A program made the translations under genes and the position numbers. Below are positions 12,149 through 42,444 of a stretch of DNA of 42,444 bases, piece by piece. Each line of letters starts with the position of its first letter. Position 1 is the first letter of the stretch. The notes under the pieces were generated by a model, which did no database searches, had not been told where the DNA came from, and saw only the letters and a list, made by a program, of their open reading frames with translations. Origin of the DNA: Candidatus Aegiribacteria sp. (GTDB taxonomy: Bacteria > Fermentibacterota > Fermentibacteria > Fermentibacterales > JCC-6); assembly GCA_030610085.1 (NCBI GenBank), contig JAUWSL010000003.1, positions 1 through 42,444 of the forward strand, in the 5' to 3' direction.

Positions 12149-12651
12149 TGGGTTTTTTCCTCCCCGATTCTATCCAGCTTCTGCAGGATATCAGCGATCT
12201 GACCTCTGAGATCCCTGAGCCTGGCGGTCAGCATTTCAAGATCATCCTCTCCACCACCAGCCTTCTCCGAAGGTTCTGAGGCGTTTCGGATCCTTCCTGC
12301 ATGGGAATCGGCATTCGCTGCACCCATCATAGGGAGCTCCCCCTGGTTGAATGCCTCAATGGTTTCCCTGACCGTTCCGCCTGCGGCGGTATAACAAGGT
12401 ACCGAGCCTGCGCTGAGCACTTCGTACGCGTTGGGACCTATGCTTGCGGATATTACTGATCCAGGATTTCTCTTCAGAACGAACTGCGCCGCCTGTATGC
12501 CGGCTCCGCTGGCCTGGCCTGCTGCAGGATTTTCAAAGCTCTCACAGGAGAAATCCCCCGTATCAACAAGAAGGTAGTACTCAGCTCTTCCGAAAACCGA
12601 ACTGATTGAAGAATCAACATTCACTCCGGACGAACTTACAATTACTTTCAT
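12145..12651 (-). CDS. NifB/NifX-family (COG1433) protein with C-terminal coiled coil
   Basis: FGRAEYY, ENPAAGQASGAGIQAAQ, IGPNAYEVL. Confidence 0.9.
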   Translation of the reverse strand: MKVIVSSSGVNVDSSISSVFGRAEYYLLVDTGDFSCESFENPAAGQASGAGIQAAQFVLKRNPGSVISASIGPNAYEVLSAGSVPCYTAAGGTVRETIEAFNQGELPMMGAANADSHAGRIRNASEPSEKAGGGEDDLEMLTARLRDLRGQIADILQKLDRIGEEKTQ

Positions 12652-12654
12652 TGA

Positions 12655-12996
12655 CTATTCCTTTTCCTTTTTTCTATTCAGAAGTTGATTTACACGGTAA
12701 GCTATCTGCTCGATAGTGTCCGCCACAAACTGAACCTGTGTCTTCAATGACTCTGTCTCAGTGTGTTCCCTGGGATAAAAGGACACGTCATCCTGTGGAT
12801 ATCTGCGCTGACCCGTCTCGTAGTACCGGTTCCTCCAGCCCCGGCCCCCGCCGCCTCTTCTTGCAAAGAAACCGCTACCTCCTCCGCGGCCTGGGGCTGT
12901 CGTATATCCACCCGACGGATATCCAGCGCATCTTCCCATGGCTCTTCCGGTCAGGCTTCCTTCACCTCTGGGTCCAGTTCCATCTCCTGCTGGCAT
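12655..12996 (-). CDS. DUF5320-like protein
   Basis: N-terminal MPAGDGTGPRGEGSLTGRAMGRC, Gly/Arg-rich middle, C-terminal heptad helix. Confidence 0.85.
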   Translation of the reverse strand: MPAGDGTGPRGEGSLTGRAMGRCAGYPSGGYTTAPGRGGGSGFFARRGGGGRGWRNRYYETGQRRYPQDDVSFYPREHTETESLKTQVQFVADTIEQIAYRVNQLLNRKKEKE

Positions 12997-13013
12997 GATA
13001 ACTCCTTTCTGTT

Positions 13014-13412
13014 TTAAGTTTTCTTGCCGCCACTGTGATGCAGTTCCATATGATCCCTATACTCGTTGAAGAAGCAGTGCAATATTCTGTCGGTTTCCTC
13101 GAGATCACCAACCCACATCTGCAGGTATTCATCACCTGAAGGCGAGAGGGCATATACCCTTCTTGCAGGACCCGAATCGCCTTCAGCCCACCTTGAAGTC
13201 ACAAAACCCCTGTCCTCAAGGCTCCTGAGGATTCGGTAGATGGTGCTTGAATCCGCTGGATTCTCACTGAATCCGAAGCGCCCAAGGTTATCGAGCAATT
13301 CGTAACCATGGGATTCCTCTCCGTGTAGCAGGAGCAGAAGGCAGGGCTCAAGGAACCTTGTTATCCTTCTCCCACAGCGATTCCGGGCACCTCTCATTCG
13401 TCTTCCAGGCAT
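13014..13412 (-). CDS. PadR-family transcriptional regulator
   Basis: ATG at 13412 after AAGGAGG; SHGYEL, STIYRILRSLEDRGFV, GPARRVYALSPSG. Confidence 0.92.
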   Translation of the reverse strand: MPGRRMRGARNRCGRRITRFLEPCLLLLLHGEESHGYELLDNLGRFGFSENPADSSTIYRILRSLEDRGFVTSRWAEGDSGPARRVYALSPSGDEYLQMWVGDLEETDRILHCFFNEYRDHMELHHSGGKKT

Positions 13413-13576: not shown

Positions 13577-14467
13577 ATGCGTATATTTAACAGAGGTCCT
13601 TTCAAAACAGACCTGCTTCTTCTGCTGACAGCGGCCATCTGGGGCTTCGCCTTTGTTGCTCAGAGGGCAGGTATGAACTACATCGGCCCTTTCCTGTTCA
13701 ACGGTATCAGGTTCGCTCTCGGCACGGCTGTTCTTCTGCCGTTTATCCTCGTCTCCAGAAGAAGGACTCGAACTCCGCGGATTCCTTTGAAATATGGTCT
13801 GCTTGCAGGACTAATACTCTTTGCCGGCGCATCTCTGCAGCAGACAGGGCTTGTCTATACAACTGCAGGAAACGCCGGTTTTGTGACAGGTCTGTACGTG
13901 ATCATCGTTCCGGTTCTTGGGTTGTTCTCAGGGCAGTCCTGCGGAAAAAGAACATGGATCGGAGCTGCCCTGGCTGTCACCGGCATGTTCCTTCTTTCGA
14001 CAGCGGGTTCGTCCAGAATGCAGTCGGGAGACGCAATCGTATTCGCAGGGGCGATATTCTGGGCCATTCATATACAGCTTATCTCAAGGCTGATGAAGCG
14101 ATACGAAGCTCTTACTCTGGCAGCGATACAGTTCGTCTGCTGCTCTTTTCTAAGTATCGTCTTCGCCCTTCTGACGGAAGAACTGTCATTGAACGGTATT
14201 CGCATGGCAGCAGTGCCCATCCTTTACGGCGGAATAGTATCGGTTGGAATAGCGTATACTCTGCAGGTTATCGCCCAGAAGCGTGCTCATCCCGCTCATG
14301 CGGCGATTATTATGAGCCTTGAAGCTGTTTTCGCCCTGATAGGAGGATGGATCCTGCTTTGTGAACCGGTAACTTTACAGGGGACAGCAGGAGGAATGTT
14401 GATGTTAACAGCAATGATCCTTTCTGCCAGGGGACAGATCAAGACACGAAAGTCGGCCGGGTTGTGA
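13577..14467 (+). CDS. DMT/EamA-family transporter
   Basis: About ten hydrophobic segments; IWGFAFVAQR, TTAGNAGFVTGLYV, IMSLEAVFA. Confidence 0.92.
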   Translation: MRIFNRGPFKTDLLLLLTAAIWGFAFVAQRAGMNYIGPFLFNGIRFALGTAVLLPFILVSRRRTRTPRIPLKYGLLAGLILFAGASLQQTGLVYTTAGNAGFVTGLYVIIVPVLGLFSGQSCGKRTWIGAALAVTGMFLLSTAGSSRMQSGDAIVFAGAIFWAIHIQLISRLMKRYEALTLAAIQFVCCSFLSIVFALLTEELSLNGIRMAAVPILYGGIVSVGIAYTLQVIAQKRAHPAHAAIIMSLEAVFALIGGWILLCEPVTLQGTAGGMLMLTAMILSARGQIKTRKSAGL

Positions 14468-18644: not shown

Positions 18645-20261
18645 CTATCGGACGAGAATCACTTTCCTTGATACCGTTGAATCACGAGACCATATCCTCA
18701 CGAAGTAGACTCCCGCAGTCACACTGTTTCCATTGTTGTCCATTCCCGCCCAGGACACGGTATGAACTCCGGCTGCGAATGTTTCCGATGTGATCGATTG
18801 TATCTGCCTTCCGGAAAGATCGTAAACGGAAATATTCACCTCTCCTGCTTCTGCAAGAGTAAAGGGAACTGTAACCATAGAAGAGAAGGGGTTAGGATAA
18901 ACAGGGCCCACTGATAGAGGCTGCATTGCTGTCTCATTCCCCCCGGAAATTGAAGTTCCTGGTGGATTGGTCAGCGCTTTTACGCAGAAATTGCCAGTCG
19001 TGCATATAGTTGTAAAATCGACCCAGGATGAACCGTCAAGGAAATAGCTCTGCCCCGGGTCGGCGCTTGATTCTACGATGGTTCTGGATGAAGCGCCTAG
19101 AAGAACCGGCACATCTGATGTGCAGTCAAAGGGTTGCCCTCCCTCATCCAGCTGAAGGTAGACATGGAAATCGTCTCCTTCGCTGAGCGGTACGGGGCTG
19201 GGAAGATTAACAGTGTGAAATCCCGTACAAAGAGCCGTTCCGGTAACGGATGCAAGCTCATCGGAAAGCTGTCCGCCGGAGAAAGTTCCGTAGACCTTTA
19301 CTGTATAATCGACTCCGTCCTCAACCGTGAAGAAGCTCAGAGCCTGCAGATCTTCATCCTGTTCAGATGTAAATGTATTGAATACTTCCATTGCGGTAGT
19401 AAGAGTATCACGCCAGCCGTGATAATCGTGGTAGTAAATGTTATCGTATTGCTGGAACTCAACATCACGAAGGGATACGGCTCCCATGGTCGGGTTCTGG
19501 CAGGAATGCTTGTCGTAATAGGAGATCCAGAAGTAACCGTTTATTCCCCAACTCGCTCCCCAGCTGTTCTTGCAGATCCAGGCACCCGGTTGGGGAGCCT
19601 GTGTCACTCTTGAATCGTCCCAGCCTACTATTGAGATCGCATGGTTCGGATCCACTGAACTCGATGGCGGCTGATAGTGTTCGTACTGACTGTTCATGAA
19701 TGAGCTGCTGTAGCACATGCAGGTCCCCATTACGCCGTAATCCATTATGGCCTGCTTGATGACATCGATATTCTCCAGGTTGGCTCCGGCCATGTACCAG
19801 ATTATCTCCCTGGGGTAGTAATAGTGGTACGATTCAAGGTATCTATCCGGAGCGGTTGTATAGGACTGCCCGTCAATATTCCGTACAGCGCCCTCTCCCC
19901 GCGTAAGGTATGCTGAGGTTACGAGGTAATCTCCACCCTGGTGTACTTCAAGCCCGCCTCCTGTAGGAGGGTCTGTGTCATCGTTGTTGAACTGGTTGAA
20001 GCCGTTCCACCAGTCGAGGTGGTATTCGGCCAGATCCGGCTCTCCGATTTCACCCTGAGCCGCCCATTCTCCAGTCATGAGCAGGTTGCCCTCGATCGAA
20101 GACATCGCCCCGAAAGTCCAGCAGGTTCCGCCCTGCTGGCTTTTGACAGAAGTTACGTAGTTCACTCCCCCAACGTCACGAAGATCGTAAGTTGATGGCG
20201 GGTCAGCCAATACGATTGCAACTGTGAATAAAATAGTAATCGTAAGCAGGAACTTTCTCAT
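18645..20261 (-). CDS. secreted papain-family (C1) cysteine peptidase with lectin-like domain and T9SS/FlgD-like C-terminal domain
   Basis: Signal peptide; QQGGTCWTF (Cys), NHAISIVGW (His), WICKNSWG (Asn); C-terminal YPNPF...VYDLSGRQI...AGVYFVRI. Confidence 0.93.
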
Positions 20262-38479: not shown

Positions 38480-39301
38480 ATGCAGTTTAAGGTTATCAGC
38501 CCTTCTAATACGAGGCTGAAAATCGCGAGAAGCCTTCACTCCAGAACCGGAATTCTGAAGCACGGTCTTTTTCTGATGGAGGGGCCAAGGTTCGTATCCG
38601 ATTACCTGCAGAGAGGAACACCGGAATGGATAATTATTTCAGAAGAAGCCTCTCCTCCGGCAGCAGCTGCAGCCGAAGGAGCTGACCATAGAAGCATCGA
38701 TGTTCTCGAAGTTCCACGGAAGCTCTTTGCCGGTATTTCAGGCACTGAGACTTCGCAGGGAATCACCGCTGTCTGCCAGCTCCCTTCTGTGACTGCGGAC
38801 AATATACCGCGGGAAGGAGTCTTCCTTCTGCTGGACGGGATATCGGACCCCGGCAACATGGGCACCATTCTAAGGTCAGCGGCCGCTTTCGGGTGTACAG
38901 CCGTGATAGCGGGCAGGGACAGCTGCTGCCCGTTTACTCCCAAGGTCACTCGGGCTGCCGCAGGCATGAACTCGGCAGTGCCGGTCATTTTCGATGCTGA
39001 TCTTGCCGCTTTCATGCGTAATAATTCACATGAGATGGAATTCATCGGAGCCGATGCTTCGGGCGAATCAACCGACCGGCTTCATAGAAATGAAAGGTGC
39101 ATTGGTCTGGTTATAGGCTCGGAAGCCCGCGGAATCTCCGAAGACACAGGAAAGCATCTCAGCGGGACAGTTGCCATACCCATGGCAGAGGGAGTGGAAT
39201 CCCTTAACGCCGCCGTCAGCGCGTCGATACTTCTTTACGAGCTGGGGTCGAAGATGGGGCCGGGCCGAACATTTAAACATTTTTCAATGTTTCTTCAGTA
39301 A
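38480..39301 (+). CDS. TrmH/SpoU-family RNA methyltransferase
   Basis: DPGNMGTILRSA, IGSEARG, IPM...ESLNAAVS. Confidence 0.92.
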   Translation: MQFKVISPSNTRLKIARSLHSRTGILKHGLFLMEGPRFVSDYLQRGTPEWIIISEEASPPAAAAAEGADHRSIDVLEVPRKLFAGISGTETSQGITAVCQLPSVTADNIPREGVFLLLDGISDPGNMGTILRSAAAFGCTAVIAGRDSCCPFTPKVTRAAAGMNSAVPVIFDADLAAFMRNNSHEMEFIGADASGESTDRLHRNERCIGLVIGSEARGISEDTGKHLSGTVAIPMAEGVESLNAAVSASILLYELGSKMGPGRTFKHFSMFLQ

Positions 39302-39330
39302 CGAATGTTTAAATGTTAGGCCCGGCCCCA
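39255..39330. repeat. 76-bp inverted repeat (27-bp arms) straddling the TrmH/NlpC junction
   Basis: TGGGGCCGGGCCGAACATTTAAACATT (39255-39281) versus the reverse complement of 39304-39330: one mismatch; 22-nt spacer. Confidence 0.9.
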
Positions 39331-39834
39331 ATTTTAATTTACGTACTCTTTCTGGCGCTGCCTGTTTTACCGGAGTCATCCGGGGAAGCTTTCATCAGCA
39401 CAATTGAGGGATTCTTAAGGAACATGGATTCATCACTCGAGACAGAGGAGGAGACAAGCTCAACACTGGAGAGCATCCTGAACGATGCCGTCTCCTATCT
39501 TGGCGTACCCTACGTGTACGGTGGAGCTGACAGCAGCGGGTTCGATTGCAGCGGCCTGGCATGGAGGGTATTCAATGACAACGGTATTCCTCTGCCGCGT
39601 ACCGTCAGTGCTATGGAAACGTCTGGAATTGCGGTTGACCGGGAAGACCTGCAGCCGGGAGATCTGCTGGTATTCGACGATCCGAAGCACACCGGCATAT
39701 ACCTGGGGGACGGGGAATTCATTCACTGTTCGTCATACCTTGACCGTGGCGTAGTGATAACTCCCCTGAGCCATTCGAACTACTCCCGCAGGTACTCCTC
39801 CGCCAGGAGAGTTCTGGGCATCGATCCGGATTAA
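39313..39834 (+). CDS. NlpC/P60 (C40) peptidase
   Basis: YLGVPYVYGG, FDCSG, LPRT, PGDLLVF, HTGIYLG, FIH; hydrophobic N-terminus. Confidence 0.92.
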   Translation: MLGPAPILIYVLFLALPVLPESSGEAFISTIEGFLRNMDSSLETEEETSSTLESILNDAVSYLGVPYVYGGADSSGFDCSGLAWRVFNDNGIPLPRTVSAMETSGIAVDREDLQPGDLLVFDDPKHTGIYLGDGEFIHCSSYLDRGVVITPLSHSNYSRRYSSARRVLGIDPD

Positions 39835-39897: not shown

Positions 39898-39918
39898 AGC
39901 ACTGCCGTCTGGTTCGGC

Positions 39919-40944
39919 CTAGAGTTTTGTAACCAGCGTTCTCATCTCCAGATCATCCTGACTGACGGCGTGTATCAGGTAGGTGCCGACGGGAGCAGTT
40001 TCACCGGATGCCGTCCTTCCGTCCCAGGTGAAGGAGGCACAGACCGCCAGTTCCGTTCTTAGGACGGTACGGCCCGACAGGTCGTAAATGGTCAGATCAA
40101 CCGGTTCGGAAGCACCGGTCACCGATATGCTGACCGAGCCATAGAAGGGATTGGCAGAAACCGTCAGATCTGCCTGTTCCACCGGCAGGCCGCCTTCTTC
40201 TGCGATCCCGGTTGTGATGTCGATCTTGTAGATCTTATCGACGTTCTCATCACTTACCCAGAGGTAGCCGTCAGTATCGAAGCAGAGCCCTCTGGGCATG
40301 ATATCTGCAGGCAGATGGGACTCCGGAATGTAGTCCACCAGCAAATTACCGGTGCAGTAAGCCTTTATAGGACTTTCTGCGGCATCCGTTGCCACCCAGA
40401 TGTCACCGGTACCACTATTGTTTTCATACGCGATGTCATAGTGAGAGATAAGCGCCGGAAGATCATCAATGTAGGGATACGTCTGAACGTAACCGGAGCT
40501 GCTGAAGTACTCGACCACTGGATCTCCGTAATAACCGTTCCCTAGAACGTAAGTGAAATTACCGCCGGAAGCGAGACCAGTCACCGACTGGTATAGCGCG
40601 CTTCCTCAACAGGTAGAGTCGTACAGCCCCTGGTAGGCTCCCGAGGTGGAGTATCTGTATACGTAGCCGTGGTAGACTCCGATATCGGCGCGGAGTATGT
40701 GCAGTGTGTCCCCCTTGATGGCCAGGCCGCTGGGAGTACCTCCGTAAGGGAAGTAGAAGGAGCTGAGGACGGAACCGTTTGAAGGATCCATCTCGTAAAC
40801 GTAGGAGGTCGTGCCGTCTACTGCCCACAGGCTGCCTGATCCGTACGCCAGCCCGGTAATTCCTGTATCCGGAGCATCGATGGTAAGAACGACACCGGCT
40901 CCGAATGCCGCGGGAACCAGTGCTAGTAGAATGATTAACTTCAT
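39919..40944 (-). CDS. secreted beta-propeller protein with T9SS/FlgD-like C-terminal domain; predicted selenoprotein (UGA at codon 113, C-U-G)
   Basis: ORFs 40606-40944 and 39919-40584 are in the same frame, separated only by TGA plus GSALYQS; signal peptide in the first part, sorting-like domain in the second; SECIS-like hairpin directly after the TGA. Confidence 0.8.
40567..40605 (-). promoter_or_regulatory. candidate bacterial SECIS element
   Basis: UGA-GGAAGCG-cgcuau-ACCAGUC-GGU-GACUGGU-cu-CGCUUCC: two perfect 7-bp stems, with a G-initiated apical loop 20 nt after UGA. Confidence 0.78.
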
Positions 40945-41023
40945 TTAATCTCCCTTCTTCAGTAAATCAAACGTATGCACTACTTAAAAGATTGTCTCCA
41001 TTCCTGATACTGTCAAGCGGACT

Positions 41024-41083: not shown

Positions 41084-41332
41084 ATATATACTAATTTAAT
41101 AGGGATTTAAGTAATGCAGGAAGGATTGACAAAGAAATTCATCTGAATTATCTATTTATGGAGGATATAATGAGCAAGCAATCATTAGCAAAAGCTGCGT
41201 TCTTTAGAATAAATAACTGTCAAACCTTCCCGCCTTCATTTTTCGTCCTACCTTACAAAGAACCAGCAAAGTCACGAGCAGTTCTTATTTATCAAGATGC
41301 GGACTGCATTATCCAGAGGAAGGGGAAATGAA

Positions 41333-42444
41333 ATGACAAGAAGAAAACAGTTTTCGCTGTGCATCTGCGCAGCTGTTCTTCTGGCTTTATCCTCAAGCGC
41401 CGCCGCCAGGGGATTGCAGCCCCTGTTTATGCCTTTACCGTCCGGTACGGACGTGCGGCCCGATACTGTATCAGTGCTGCACTCCATCGGTAATATCAGC
41501 TCAGTTGTTATGAACATGGGGATATGGGGACATGGACCTTGGGGTGGGCCTCACACGGCCCTGGAATGGCCGAGCGGTTCCGGCAGCGACTATCTTTGGA
41601 GAGGGGAACTCTGGAGCTGCTGCTTCGGTGATATCACACCCGGAGGTTCCACTGACAAATGGGCGAGCTGTGCCGGTTACGGAAACCTGGAATTACAGCC
41701 GAGCGAAGGATATCCCATGGAGTACATGCTGCCCGGACCGCTGGCTCCGGAGCAGTCGCAGTACGGTGCCGATGACTGGGATCCGCTGTACAACACTGAT
41801 CCATACGGGCTTGGCATCTGGGTGGAGAACTACACATGGGACACACCTGGATTCGATAACTTCATGGCCACGGAGATCGTCTTCACGCATCACAGCGATC
41901 AGGGCAACCCGGGTGTCCCGCTTGACGCCTTCGTCGCCGGGATCATGGGGGATTGCGATGTCGCCACTGCTGATGTGACTGAACCTCATCTTGATGATCT
42001 TGCCTACTACGACGGGCACGCTATCTGGTGCAACGATCCGGATGCGACATTCGAATATGTCTTCGATGGTTCGGTCAATGCGAGCACTCAGGACGATTAC
42101 ACCTACCAGCAGAACCCTGACAATCCGCTGCCACCGGGTGATCCCGATAACATCTGGTACCACTACAACTACTTTGGAACAGACGGAGTCCCGGACAACG
42201 ATGTGGACCAGAACGGCGTGAGTGACCATTTTACAATTCTGGCGAAGGTTGTCGGCACTGACACACTTTACAGGCAGGATCCTGAATCAGGTGTTATACT
42301 GTTCGCAGAAGGAATGCCGTACTGGCACTGCAGCCATACAGTGAGCGATACTACTTACCTTGTGGTTCCAAGGAATCTCGGTTACATGTGGGACGGCGAT
42401 TATCCCGGAAGTTCTGAAGATGATTCGGGAGAACCGCTTCTGAG
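41333..42444 (+). CDS. 5' part of a large secreted acidic protein (runs off the window; absent from the ORF track)
   Basis: Manual translation is open for 370 codons: MTRRKQFSLCICAAVLLALSSSAAA signal peptide, then HSIGNISSVVMNMG, LEWPSGSGSDYLWRGELW and Asp-rich loops (DGVPDNDVDQNGVSD). Confidence 0.85.
   Translation, partial: MTRRKQFSLCICAAVLLALSSSAAARGLQPLFMPLPSGTDVRPDTVSVLHSIGNISSVVMNMGIWGHGPWGGPHTALEWPSGSGSDYLWRGELWSCCFGDITPGGSTDKWASCAGYGNLELQPSEGYPMEYMLPGPLAPEQSQYGADDWDPLYNTDPYGLGIWVENYTWDTPGFDNFMATEIVFTHHSDQGNPGVPLDAFVAGIMGDCDVATADVTEPHLDDLAYYDGHAIWCNDPDATFEYVFDGSVNASTQDDYTYQQNPDNPLPPGDPDNIWYHYNYFGTDGVPDNDVDQNGVSDHFTILAKVVGTDTLYRQDPESGVILFAEGMPYWHCSHTVSDTTYLVVPRNLGYMWDGDYPGSSEDDSGEPLL

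Follow-up and report, generated by a model that had tools for sequence, protein, structure and literature searches.

A probable selenoprotein gene for a predicted exported beta-propeller with a Cys-Sec dyad in Candidatus Fermentibacteria

The great majority of the selenoproteins known from bacteria are redox enzymes of the cytoplasm or periplasm, and their cysteine (Cys) homologues are abundant. The redox centre of mammalian thioredoxin reductase, a cytosolic flavoenzyme, is a Gly-Cys-Sec-Gly sequence located on a flexible C-terminal tail, in which selenocysteine (Sec) directly follows Cys. In the bacterial genes, for which fdhF of E. coli is the archetype, the UGA codon is followed by a hairpin within the coding region, the selenocysteine insertion sequence (SECIS), and the bacterial consensus (bSECIS; the model employed by bSECISearch), as given in the review PMC13188914, comprises a loop of 3-9 nt with a G in its first two positions, a stem of 4-16 bp, a spacing of 16-37 nt and a minimum free energy (MFE) of -7.5 or lower. 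In the present work, we have analysed a stretch of 42,444 nucleotides (hereafter the window), which is contig C4 of a cold-seep Fermentibacteria metagenome-assembled genome (MAG; 1.41 Mb in 76 contigs, estimated to be 67% complete). Our analyses centre on a 341-codon frame on its minus strand that is interrupted by one TGA, and sequence comparisons indicate that this is very probably a selenoprotein gene, with decoding by the mechanism usual in bacteria.

The likeness of this locus to the bacterial SECIS genes lies in a UGA followed by a coding-region hairpin with a GGU loop, a 7-bp upper stem and a spacing of 20 nt, and in the presence of selA, selB, selD and tRNA-Sec in the same genome. It differs from them in that no Cys orthologues were found, that the SelB-SECIS interaction is here a predicted one and that the protein is unrelated to the selenoprotein families named in the main texts searched (viz. 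PMC13188914, PMC13326102, and PMC12013277), which contain no mention of Fermentibacter, propeller, FlgD or T9SS (the type IX secretion system). With thioredoxin reductase the protein shares a vicinal Cys-Sec pair with Gly as the next residue (in this family [T/D/Y/N/A/S]-C-U-G), and such a pair might close to a selenenylsulfide. A sister subfamily has C-G-G-U-G, a CxxU arrangement. Unlike in that enzyme, the dyad is placed in an internal propeller loop of an apparently exported protein, which has no flavin/NADPH domain and no homology to thioredoxin reductase.

A single reading frame across a conserved TGA codon

The interval 40944..39919 (-) is a single 341-codon frame, the sole interruption of which is a TGA at 40608..40606 (…STC-U-GS…). 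In a standard table-11 view this frame is divided into a 112-aa open reading frame (ORF; 40944..40606, ending ...YDSTC-TGA) and a 221-aa ORF, the start listed for the latter, a GTG at 40584, falling within the loop of the hairpin and on the first base of its 3' arm. Past the TGA the frame continues GSALYQSVTGLASGG... up to a TAG at 39921..39919, and the read-through product is 341 amino acids (aa) long, with C112 directly preceding U113. A preliminary description of this DNA had joined the two ORFs across the in-frame UGA into one 341-aa protein with Sec113 in a Cys-Sec dyad; translation confirmed the coordinates of the shared frame, and the proposed protein is upheld by this single frame together with the conserved TGA column and the SECIS-like hairpin.

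The read-through protein was searched against 41 genomes with stops read through, and the best 150 matches were listed, with 583 weaker ones beyond. Matches were obtained in 37/41 genomes, including all 24 of the genus and all members of two other families in the order (1/1 and 9/9). An in-frame TGA is present in 103 of the best 150 matches, and 11 of the 150 span the column stop-free. For 32 of the 34 relatives within the order, one or more of the matches listed bear the TGA, the exceptions being G009 (79% complete) and G016 (73% complete; also without SelA and tRNA-Sec), and six outgroup genomes have none. The position of the codon was then compared in two overlapping sets, viz. the 20 best loci and 80 loci from named species genomes. 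The TGA occupies the same alignment column in 20/20 best loci (C-U-G-S in 19, C-G-G-U-G-N in one) and is found at the motif in 80/80 loci of the larger set (C-U-G in 52, C-G-G-U-G-N in 28), five of which had first mapped three residues off, being of the C-G-G-U type. A scan of the genome contigs by a single protein gave no match; an alignment-based query succeeded. Of the conserved TGA or TGA/Cys alternation expected at this column in relatives, the conserved TGA is borne out by both sets, but an alternation of Sec with Cys was unseen among close homologues. Trp, Arg or Gly at the position, which would have spoken against the proposed Sec codon, was found in none of the homologues carrying the motif. 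The closest public records are those of Candidatus Aegiribacteria, Fermentibacteria, Fermentibacter and Sabulitectum (formerly candidate division Hyd24-12), and the family appears to be lineage-restricted, as with these searches no members were found outside the order of Candidatus Fermentibacteria.

Some of these genomes contain several members of the family. With a propeller-only query, TGA-bearing copies number three in this genome, three in G002, three in G006, seven in G014, and one in G027 (a single-contig genome of 2.5 Mb). One paralogue in the present genome (contig C30 784-1455 (+)) is a short C-U-G-S form without the immunoglobulin (Ig)-like tail that ends ...TWANIKSSF (…LTRSTWANIKSSF), and an ending of the form …TW.xIK..F is also present in the TGA-less relatives P0014 and P0016. 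The other (contig C69 4679-5344 (-)) is a C-G-G-U-G-N form, carries a signal resembling that of lipoproteins (…ILSAAC…) and likewise lacks the Ig tail. Locus L053 (G026 contig C4 61085-63131) contains a tandem pair of TGA-bearing members in the same orientation, which points to a local duplication in the family.

The ratio of nonsynonymous to synonymous substitution rates (dN/dS) was estimated from comparisons with five orthologues (71-77% identity). It amounts to 0.11-0.32 for the part preceding the TGA, 0.20-0.27 for residues 114-246 and 0.19-0.33 for the tail, and these values indicate that coding constraint continues past the TGA at a level similar to that before it. A control is provided by a 1263-codon Peptidase_C25 (gingipain/PorU-family) gene on contig C34, which has an in-frame TGA at 14012, three residues past its probable catalytic Cys (…ATCDV-TGA-HFD…). 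A Sec reading of that codon was rejected, a Gly codon being present in 11/11 orthologues and no stop among the relatives' matches listed; by this comparison, the C34 TGA arose by a nonsense change or stems from a base error. Since it is matched by Gly, the search alone does not generate conserved TGAs. A C-U-G motif at window position 19914 (+), which is open on both sides, was rejected as a chance match antisense to the gene for a 538-aa C1 peptidase, and four further C-U-G matches in the genome (contigs C28, C64, C69 (+), and one in the window) have no family context.

Separately assembled sequences contain the same codon. A DNA contig of run X1, which may be the source sample, is identical over 40417-41012 and reproduces the TGA region, hairpin included, letter for letter, thereby answering the concern that the TGA could be a product of assembly; together with the 80/80 conserved loci, it led us to reject an assembly error. 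X3, a run of a different study, has a 4344-nt DNA contig that covers all of the stretch concerned with 51 substitutions and zero indels, and among the listed differences those nearest to the TGA (40594 and 40615) are synonymous by our reading. Parts of the gene that lack cover in X1 and X2 carry no weight either way. A metatranscriptomic contig (X13; 1066 nt, ~91% identical) spans 39915-40961 with both halves, which represents presence in an RNA library and no proof of transcription or read-through. It extends from 17 nt upstream of the ATG to 4 nt past the stop, which would fit a monocistronic transcript, the ends of which contigs cannot prove.

The hairpin after the TGA and the selenocysteine machinery

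The hairpin was described initially as following the UGA directly, with two perfect 7-bp stems and a GGU loop, and these details match our analysis. The lower stem is formed by GGAAGCG (40605-40599) pairing with CGCUUCC (40573-40567) and the apical stem by ACCAGUC (40592-40586) pairing with GACUGGU (40582-40576), the apical loop consisting of GGU (40585-40583) at a spacing of 20 nt from the UGA. Folding gave an MFE of -23.1 kcal/mol over 58 nt (z -2.64; 3/200 shuffles fold equally well) and of -20.7 kcal/mol over 54 nt (z -2.04; 6/200 shuffles). The GGU loop, 7-bp stem, 20-nt spacing and -20.7 kcal/mol all lie inside the four ranges of the bSECIS consensus as given in the main text of PMC13188914. 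The hairpin exceeds what chance would give because it is conserved, with compensatory changes, across the 77 distinct homologous sequences that make up our covariation alignment.

In this alignment, 95.8% of the cells of the apical helix are paired, and four of its seven pairs vary on both sides. Pair 23-33 occurs as CG in 51, AU in 18 and GC in 8 sequences with zero unpaired, and pair 26-30 as CG in 59, AU in 10 and UA in one. On the 3' side, these two pairs fall on third positions of codons (for Thr/Ser and Val), and therefore synonymous sites track non-synonymous changes on the opposite arm. The covariation score is 0.243, compared with 0.124 for column shuffles (0/500 of which reach it) and with at most 0.104 for slid partners. 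The loop is GGU nearly everywhere (GGC in three sequences, AGU in one), and the apical hairpin was recovered in 5/5 family members folded one by one. On the strength of this covariation, the hairpin is judged to be under selection as RNA. The compensatory stem changes that had been anticipated are seen in the apical stem; conservation is confined to this stem of 6-7 bp and the GGU loop, the lower stem being specific to the subfamily of this gene.

The machinery for Sec insertion, which the preliminary description had named as a check, is present here and in most sister genomes. The same genome has a tRNA-Sec (76.4 bits; ARAGORN call tRNA-SeC(tca)), a selB (340 bits) that adjoins selA, a selD that carries its own in-frame TGA (contig C48 11201-12124; context …CAG-U-AGK…), and a selA that is read in two frames (contig C49 ~12232-13319). 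Five consecutive A (…ATCAAAAACATCC…) mark the break in selA, a gene that occupies one frame in most relatives, and the break reflects an indel of the assembly or else a true frameshift. In the 34 same-order relatives, SelA was found in 31, nearly all of them single-frame, and tRNA-Sec in 29 at E <= 1e-8. Four genomes (G003, G008, G014, and G015) have a second, 88-nt tRNA-Sec-like match of ~49 bits, barely above the Rfam cut-off; these may be ordinary long-arm tRNAs, as control genomes without Sec score alike. Genome-wide recoding of TGA (code 4 or 25) was rejected, because TGA ends 386 of the 749 ORFs of at least 250 codons, making it the commonest stop of the genome, and because several family members themselves end in TGA.

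Predicted fold, dyad position and export

An AlphaFold model built on the 20-sequence alignment (mean pLDDT 85.5) contains one propeller from residue 17 to ~245, a disordered linker (246-256) and an Ig-like sandwich (259-340). Blades were assigned from the strand pattern and a repeated x-G-L-A-x motif to residues 29-64, 70-109, 120-~158, ~168-206, and 217-242, and the N-terminal strand 17-23 of the model probably closes blade 5 and with it the ring. That two blades precede the TGA and three follow it, as had been read from the sequence at the outset, agrees with this predicted five-bladed model. In the model, the loop ...STCUGSALYQ... (110-119) would connect blade 2, at its outer strand, with the inner strand of blade 3. 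In propellers a loop of that position lies on the usual ligand-binding face, and from the blade assignment and propeller topology we infer that the Cys-Sec dyad lies on this face.

In Foldseek searches, the best superposition is on five-bladed glutaminyl cyclases (3mbr, TMt 0.75 and rmsd 2.9; also 3nol and 2iwa), with target-normalised TM-scores of 0.69-0.75 and rmsd values of 2.9-3.8 Å over ~250 columns. Identity to these enzymes is 14-19%, the Cys-Sec loop belongs to the family described here and cyclase activity is suggested by no test; the glutaminyl-cyclase Pfam family is absent among matches at E <= 1, so that the similarity is one of fold only. Other Foldseek matches include PorZ, a YVTN S-layer propeller and NHL domains. 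The propellers that are cargo of the T9SS or are otherwise located at the cell surface (PorZ 5m11, YVTN 1l0q, and BtuG-type 8bai) share with our protein the order of signal peptide, propeller and Ig-like tail; PorZ is the top Foldseek match by E-value, and the NCBIfam PorZ and Por_Secre_tail models touch the tail. Those propellers differ in being without Sec, while the tail here falls below the curated cut-off and PorV was not found in this genome.

A hydrophobic signal-like N-terminus is present in 20/20 aligned members, with pLDDT below 50 for residues 1-14 of the model. The Pfam model FlgD_ig matches residues 269-329 with 38.3 bits (cut-off 27), so that of the T9SS/FlgD-like domain noted at first the FlgD-like part stands, but the T9SS sorting-domain model stays below its own cut-off. 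A 538-aa secreted C1-type peptidase encoded at window 18645-20261 (-) has the same FlgD-Ig-like tail (29% identity over 82 residues), and the occurrence of this tail on an unrelated C1 peptidase supports its role as a shared sorting module; it also ends many other frames in these genomes. The genome further encodes an SprA_N protein (45.6 bits) in a 1868-aa frame and has 11 Peptidase_C25 matches. All three family copies of the genome look exported by their sequences, and we infer a T9SS route as a possible path of export.

Alternative readings, significance and genomic setting

If the gene is decoded as proposed, the hairpin right after the UGA would recruit SelB·GTP·Sec-tRNA(Sec) during translation, and selenocysteine would be inserted at codon 113 with no translation stop. 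The product would be an exported, probably cell-surface, protein with a Sec-type signal peptide, a five-bladed propeller and a FlgD-Ig/T9SS-like tail, and its vicinal selenol/thiol (Cys-x-x-Sec in the sister subfamily) could serve in a reversible selenenylsulfide or in soft-ligand binding outside the cytoplasm. Our best guess for its function is a redox-active or soft-ligand-binding site that would be used outside the cytoplasm.

Several results weigh against this explanation. No close homologues with Cys replacing Sec were found: in 11 TGA-less paralogues the column is occupied by Ser, Leu or Tyr, with Cys neither there nor just before, and four full-length database homologues without the TGA are also without the motif. 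A lack of Cys-for-Sec homologues is unusual for selenoproteins. For the hairpin, the single-sequence z-scores are modest and the fold alone is only moderately unusual; the lower 7-bp stem, rejected as a family-wide feature, is paired in 54.5% of cells only; and RNAalifold by itself keeps a 4-bp apical core (consensus energy -4.44). After the TGA of selD no similar hairpin is present, the best local stem there including the UGA, with GGU in its loop, at a z of -0.02. The frameshift in selA in this assembly would, if real, leave the strain unable to make Sec-tRNA, and the gene would then yield a 112-aa stub. On the side of export, the NCBIfam model Por_Secre_tail (TIGR04183) scores 17 bits, under its cut-off of 23, and the search for PorV gave no match in a genome that is 67% complete.

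The UGA could be read through without Sec, by near-cognate decoding (Trp or Cys) or by a suppressor tRNA, with the hairpin acting as a general stimulator; the absence of Cys-for-Sec orthologues, the frameshifted selA in this assembly and the second, weak tRNA-Sec-like match (~49 bits) in four genomes of the genus would all be compatible with this. We nevertheless consider it improbable, as the hairpin fits the SelB-type bSECIS consensus given in the main text of PMC13188914 (G-G/U in a small loop at 20 nt), complete Sec machinery accompanies the family across the order, and the codon is located beside Cys as CU or CxxU, a typical Sec redox context. TGA is also the main stop codon, and a general suppressor is therefore unlikely.

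That the UGA is a real stop, separating a 112-aa secreted stub from a 221-aa protein initiated at the GTG in the loop, with the hairpin being regulatory or a terminator, is the reading implied by public gene callers, which give these very halves (112-122 aa and 206-221 aa). It is very hard to reconcile with the remaining observations and is highly improbable: neither half closes the propeller and the model needs both, the downstream half is without a signal peptide, the frame is continuous across the TGA in 80/80 loci despite nearby 3-nt indels, and a terminator-like site was not found in our scan of the locus. The GTG of the loop becomes GTT, GTA or GCG in homologues and is therefore not a conserved start. 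A pseudogene, or a sequencing or assembly error at the TGA, would gain some credit from the fact that this MAG has at least one probably spurious or degenerate TGA (that of the C25 peptidase) as well as the frameshifted selA. With the TGA in one and the same column at 80/80 loci, which come from many species assembled independently, the identical independent X1 contig and purifying selection downstream, there is next to no room for it.

An exhaustive HMMER search with a propeller profile gave 7700 matches at E <= 1e-3, 62 of them at E <= 1e-30; among the best 150 of the 7700, members of the family are present as halves only, either 112-122 aa and ending in Cys or 206-221 aa and starting in the loop, and these halves are unnamed in NCBI, JGI/IMG, ENA, and Logan. 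NCBIfam has no model for the propeller. In the same best 150 matches, 39 non-query proteins cover the column, and only P0143 has Cys-Cys there (in 3/3 domain alignments covering the column). This metagenomic protein of 2755 aa (IMG 'uncharacterized protein YjiK'; SdiA-regulated-like) shares the N-terminal blade motif (dAPD..g..GLaY...LW) with the family, but it is very distant (17-25 bits per domain), giant and multidomain, and has no TGA. No description of the family was found in the literature, although supplementary family lists (BSepDB, deep-Sep) could include it; among the papers listed, none makes a relevant link of Aegiribacteria, Fermentibacteria or Sabulitectum with selenium, and the Sabulitectum preprint (10.1101/146886) makes no mention of 'seleno'.

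Aspects that appear to be new are the family itself, the export with a T9SS-like tail, the location of the Cys-Sec/CxxU dyad in a loop of the propeller and the absence of close forms with Cys. More tentatively, and with some doubt on our part, this may be the first class of selenoproteins that is surface-exported by a T9SS-type route, in which all close members examined contain Sec and none has Cys, and with a dyad (or CxxU) on the ligand face that acts on an extracellular substrate. If so, selenium chemistry would be used outside the cell, and possible substrates in sulfidic anoxic sediments would include polysulfide, elemental sulfur, a soft metal(loid), selenium, and protein disulfides. Gene callers split the family everywhere and public collections hold unnamed halves; exported proteins of an uncultured phylum are therefore missing from annotation and proteomics databases. 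An exported Cys-Sec propeller that has one to seven copies in the five genomes counted and lacks a close Cys form would point to strict anaerobes using selenium in their cell envelope or outside it, and the 77 natural SECIS variants with clear covariation provide a test set for recognition by a non-proteobacterial SelB.

The features of the gene are collected in Table 1.

Table 1. Positions of the predicted features of the selenoprotein gene within the window
Feature	Position	Strand	Evidence
Putative selenoprotein gene, 341 codons + TAG (39921..39919), ATG 40944..40942	39919..40944	(-)	Single frame; homologues with one in-frame TGA; dN/dS
Shine-Dalgarno-like AAGGGAG, 5 nt before ATG	40950..40956	(-)	Sequence reading
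Predicted signal peptide, ~residues 1-16, MKLIILLALVPAAFGA, Sec-translocon type, without lipobox Cys	40897..40944	(-)	Judged by eye
Predicted five-bladed beta-propeller, residues 17-247	40204..40896	(-)	AlphaFold and Foldseek
Cys112 codon TGT, just before Sec	40609..40611	(-)	Near-invariant in 20-sequence alignment; C-G-G-U instead in one subfamily
UGA, probable selenocysteine 113	40606..40608	(-)	Invariant column in 20/20 and 80/80 loci; identical X1 contig
Candidate SECIS hairpin within coding sequence	40567..40605	(-)	Folding, covariation, bSECIS consensus
C-terminal Ig-like domain, residues 259-341, FlgD_ig / T9SS-tail type	39922..40170	(-)	Pfam FlgD_ig

A promoter and terminator scan of the locus gave nothing on either strand, and among its neighbours within the window no operon partner and no redox partner adjoins the gene. 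The flanking genes, all on the plus strand, encode a divergent signal-peptide protein with no Pfam match that runs past the window end (41297-42442), an NlpC/P60 peptidase (39313-39834) and a SpoU-type RNA methyltransferase (38480-39301).

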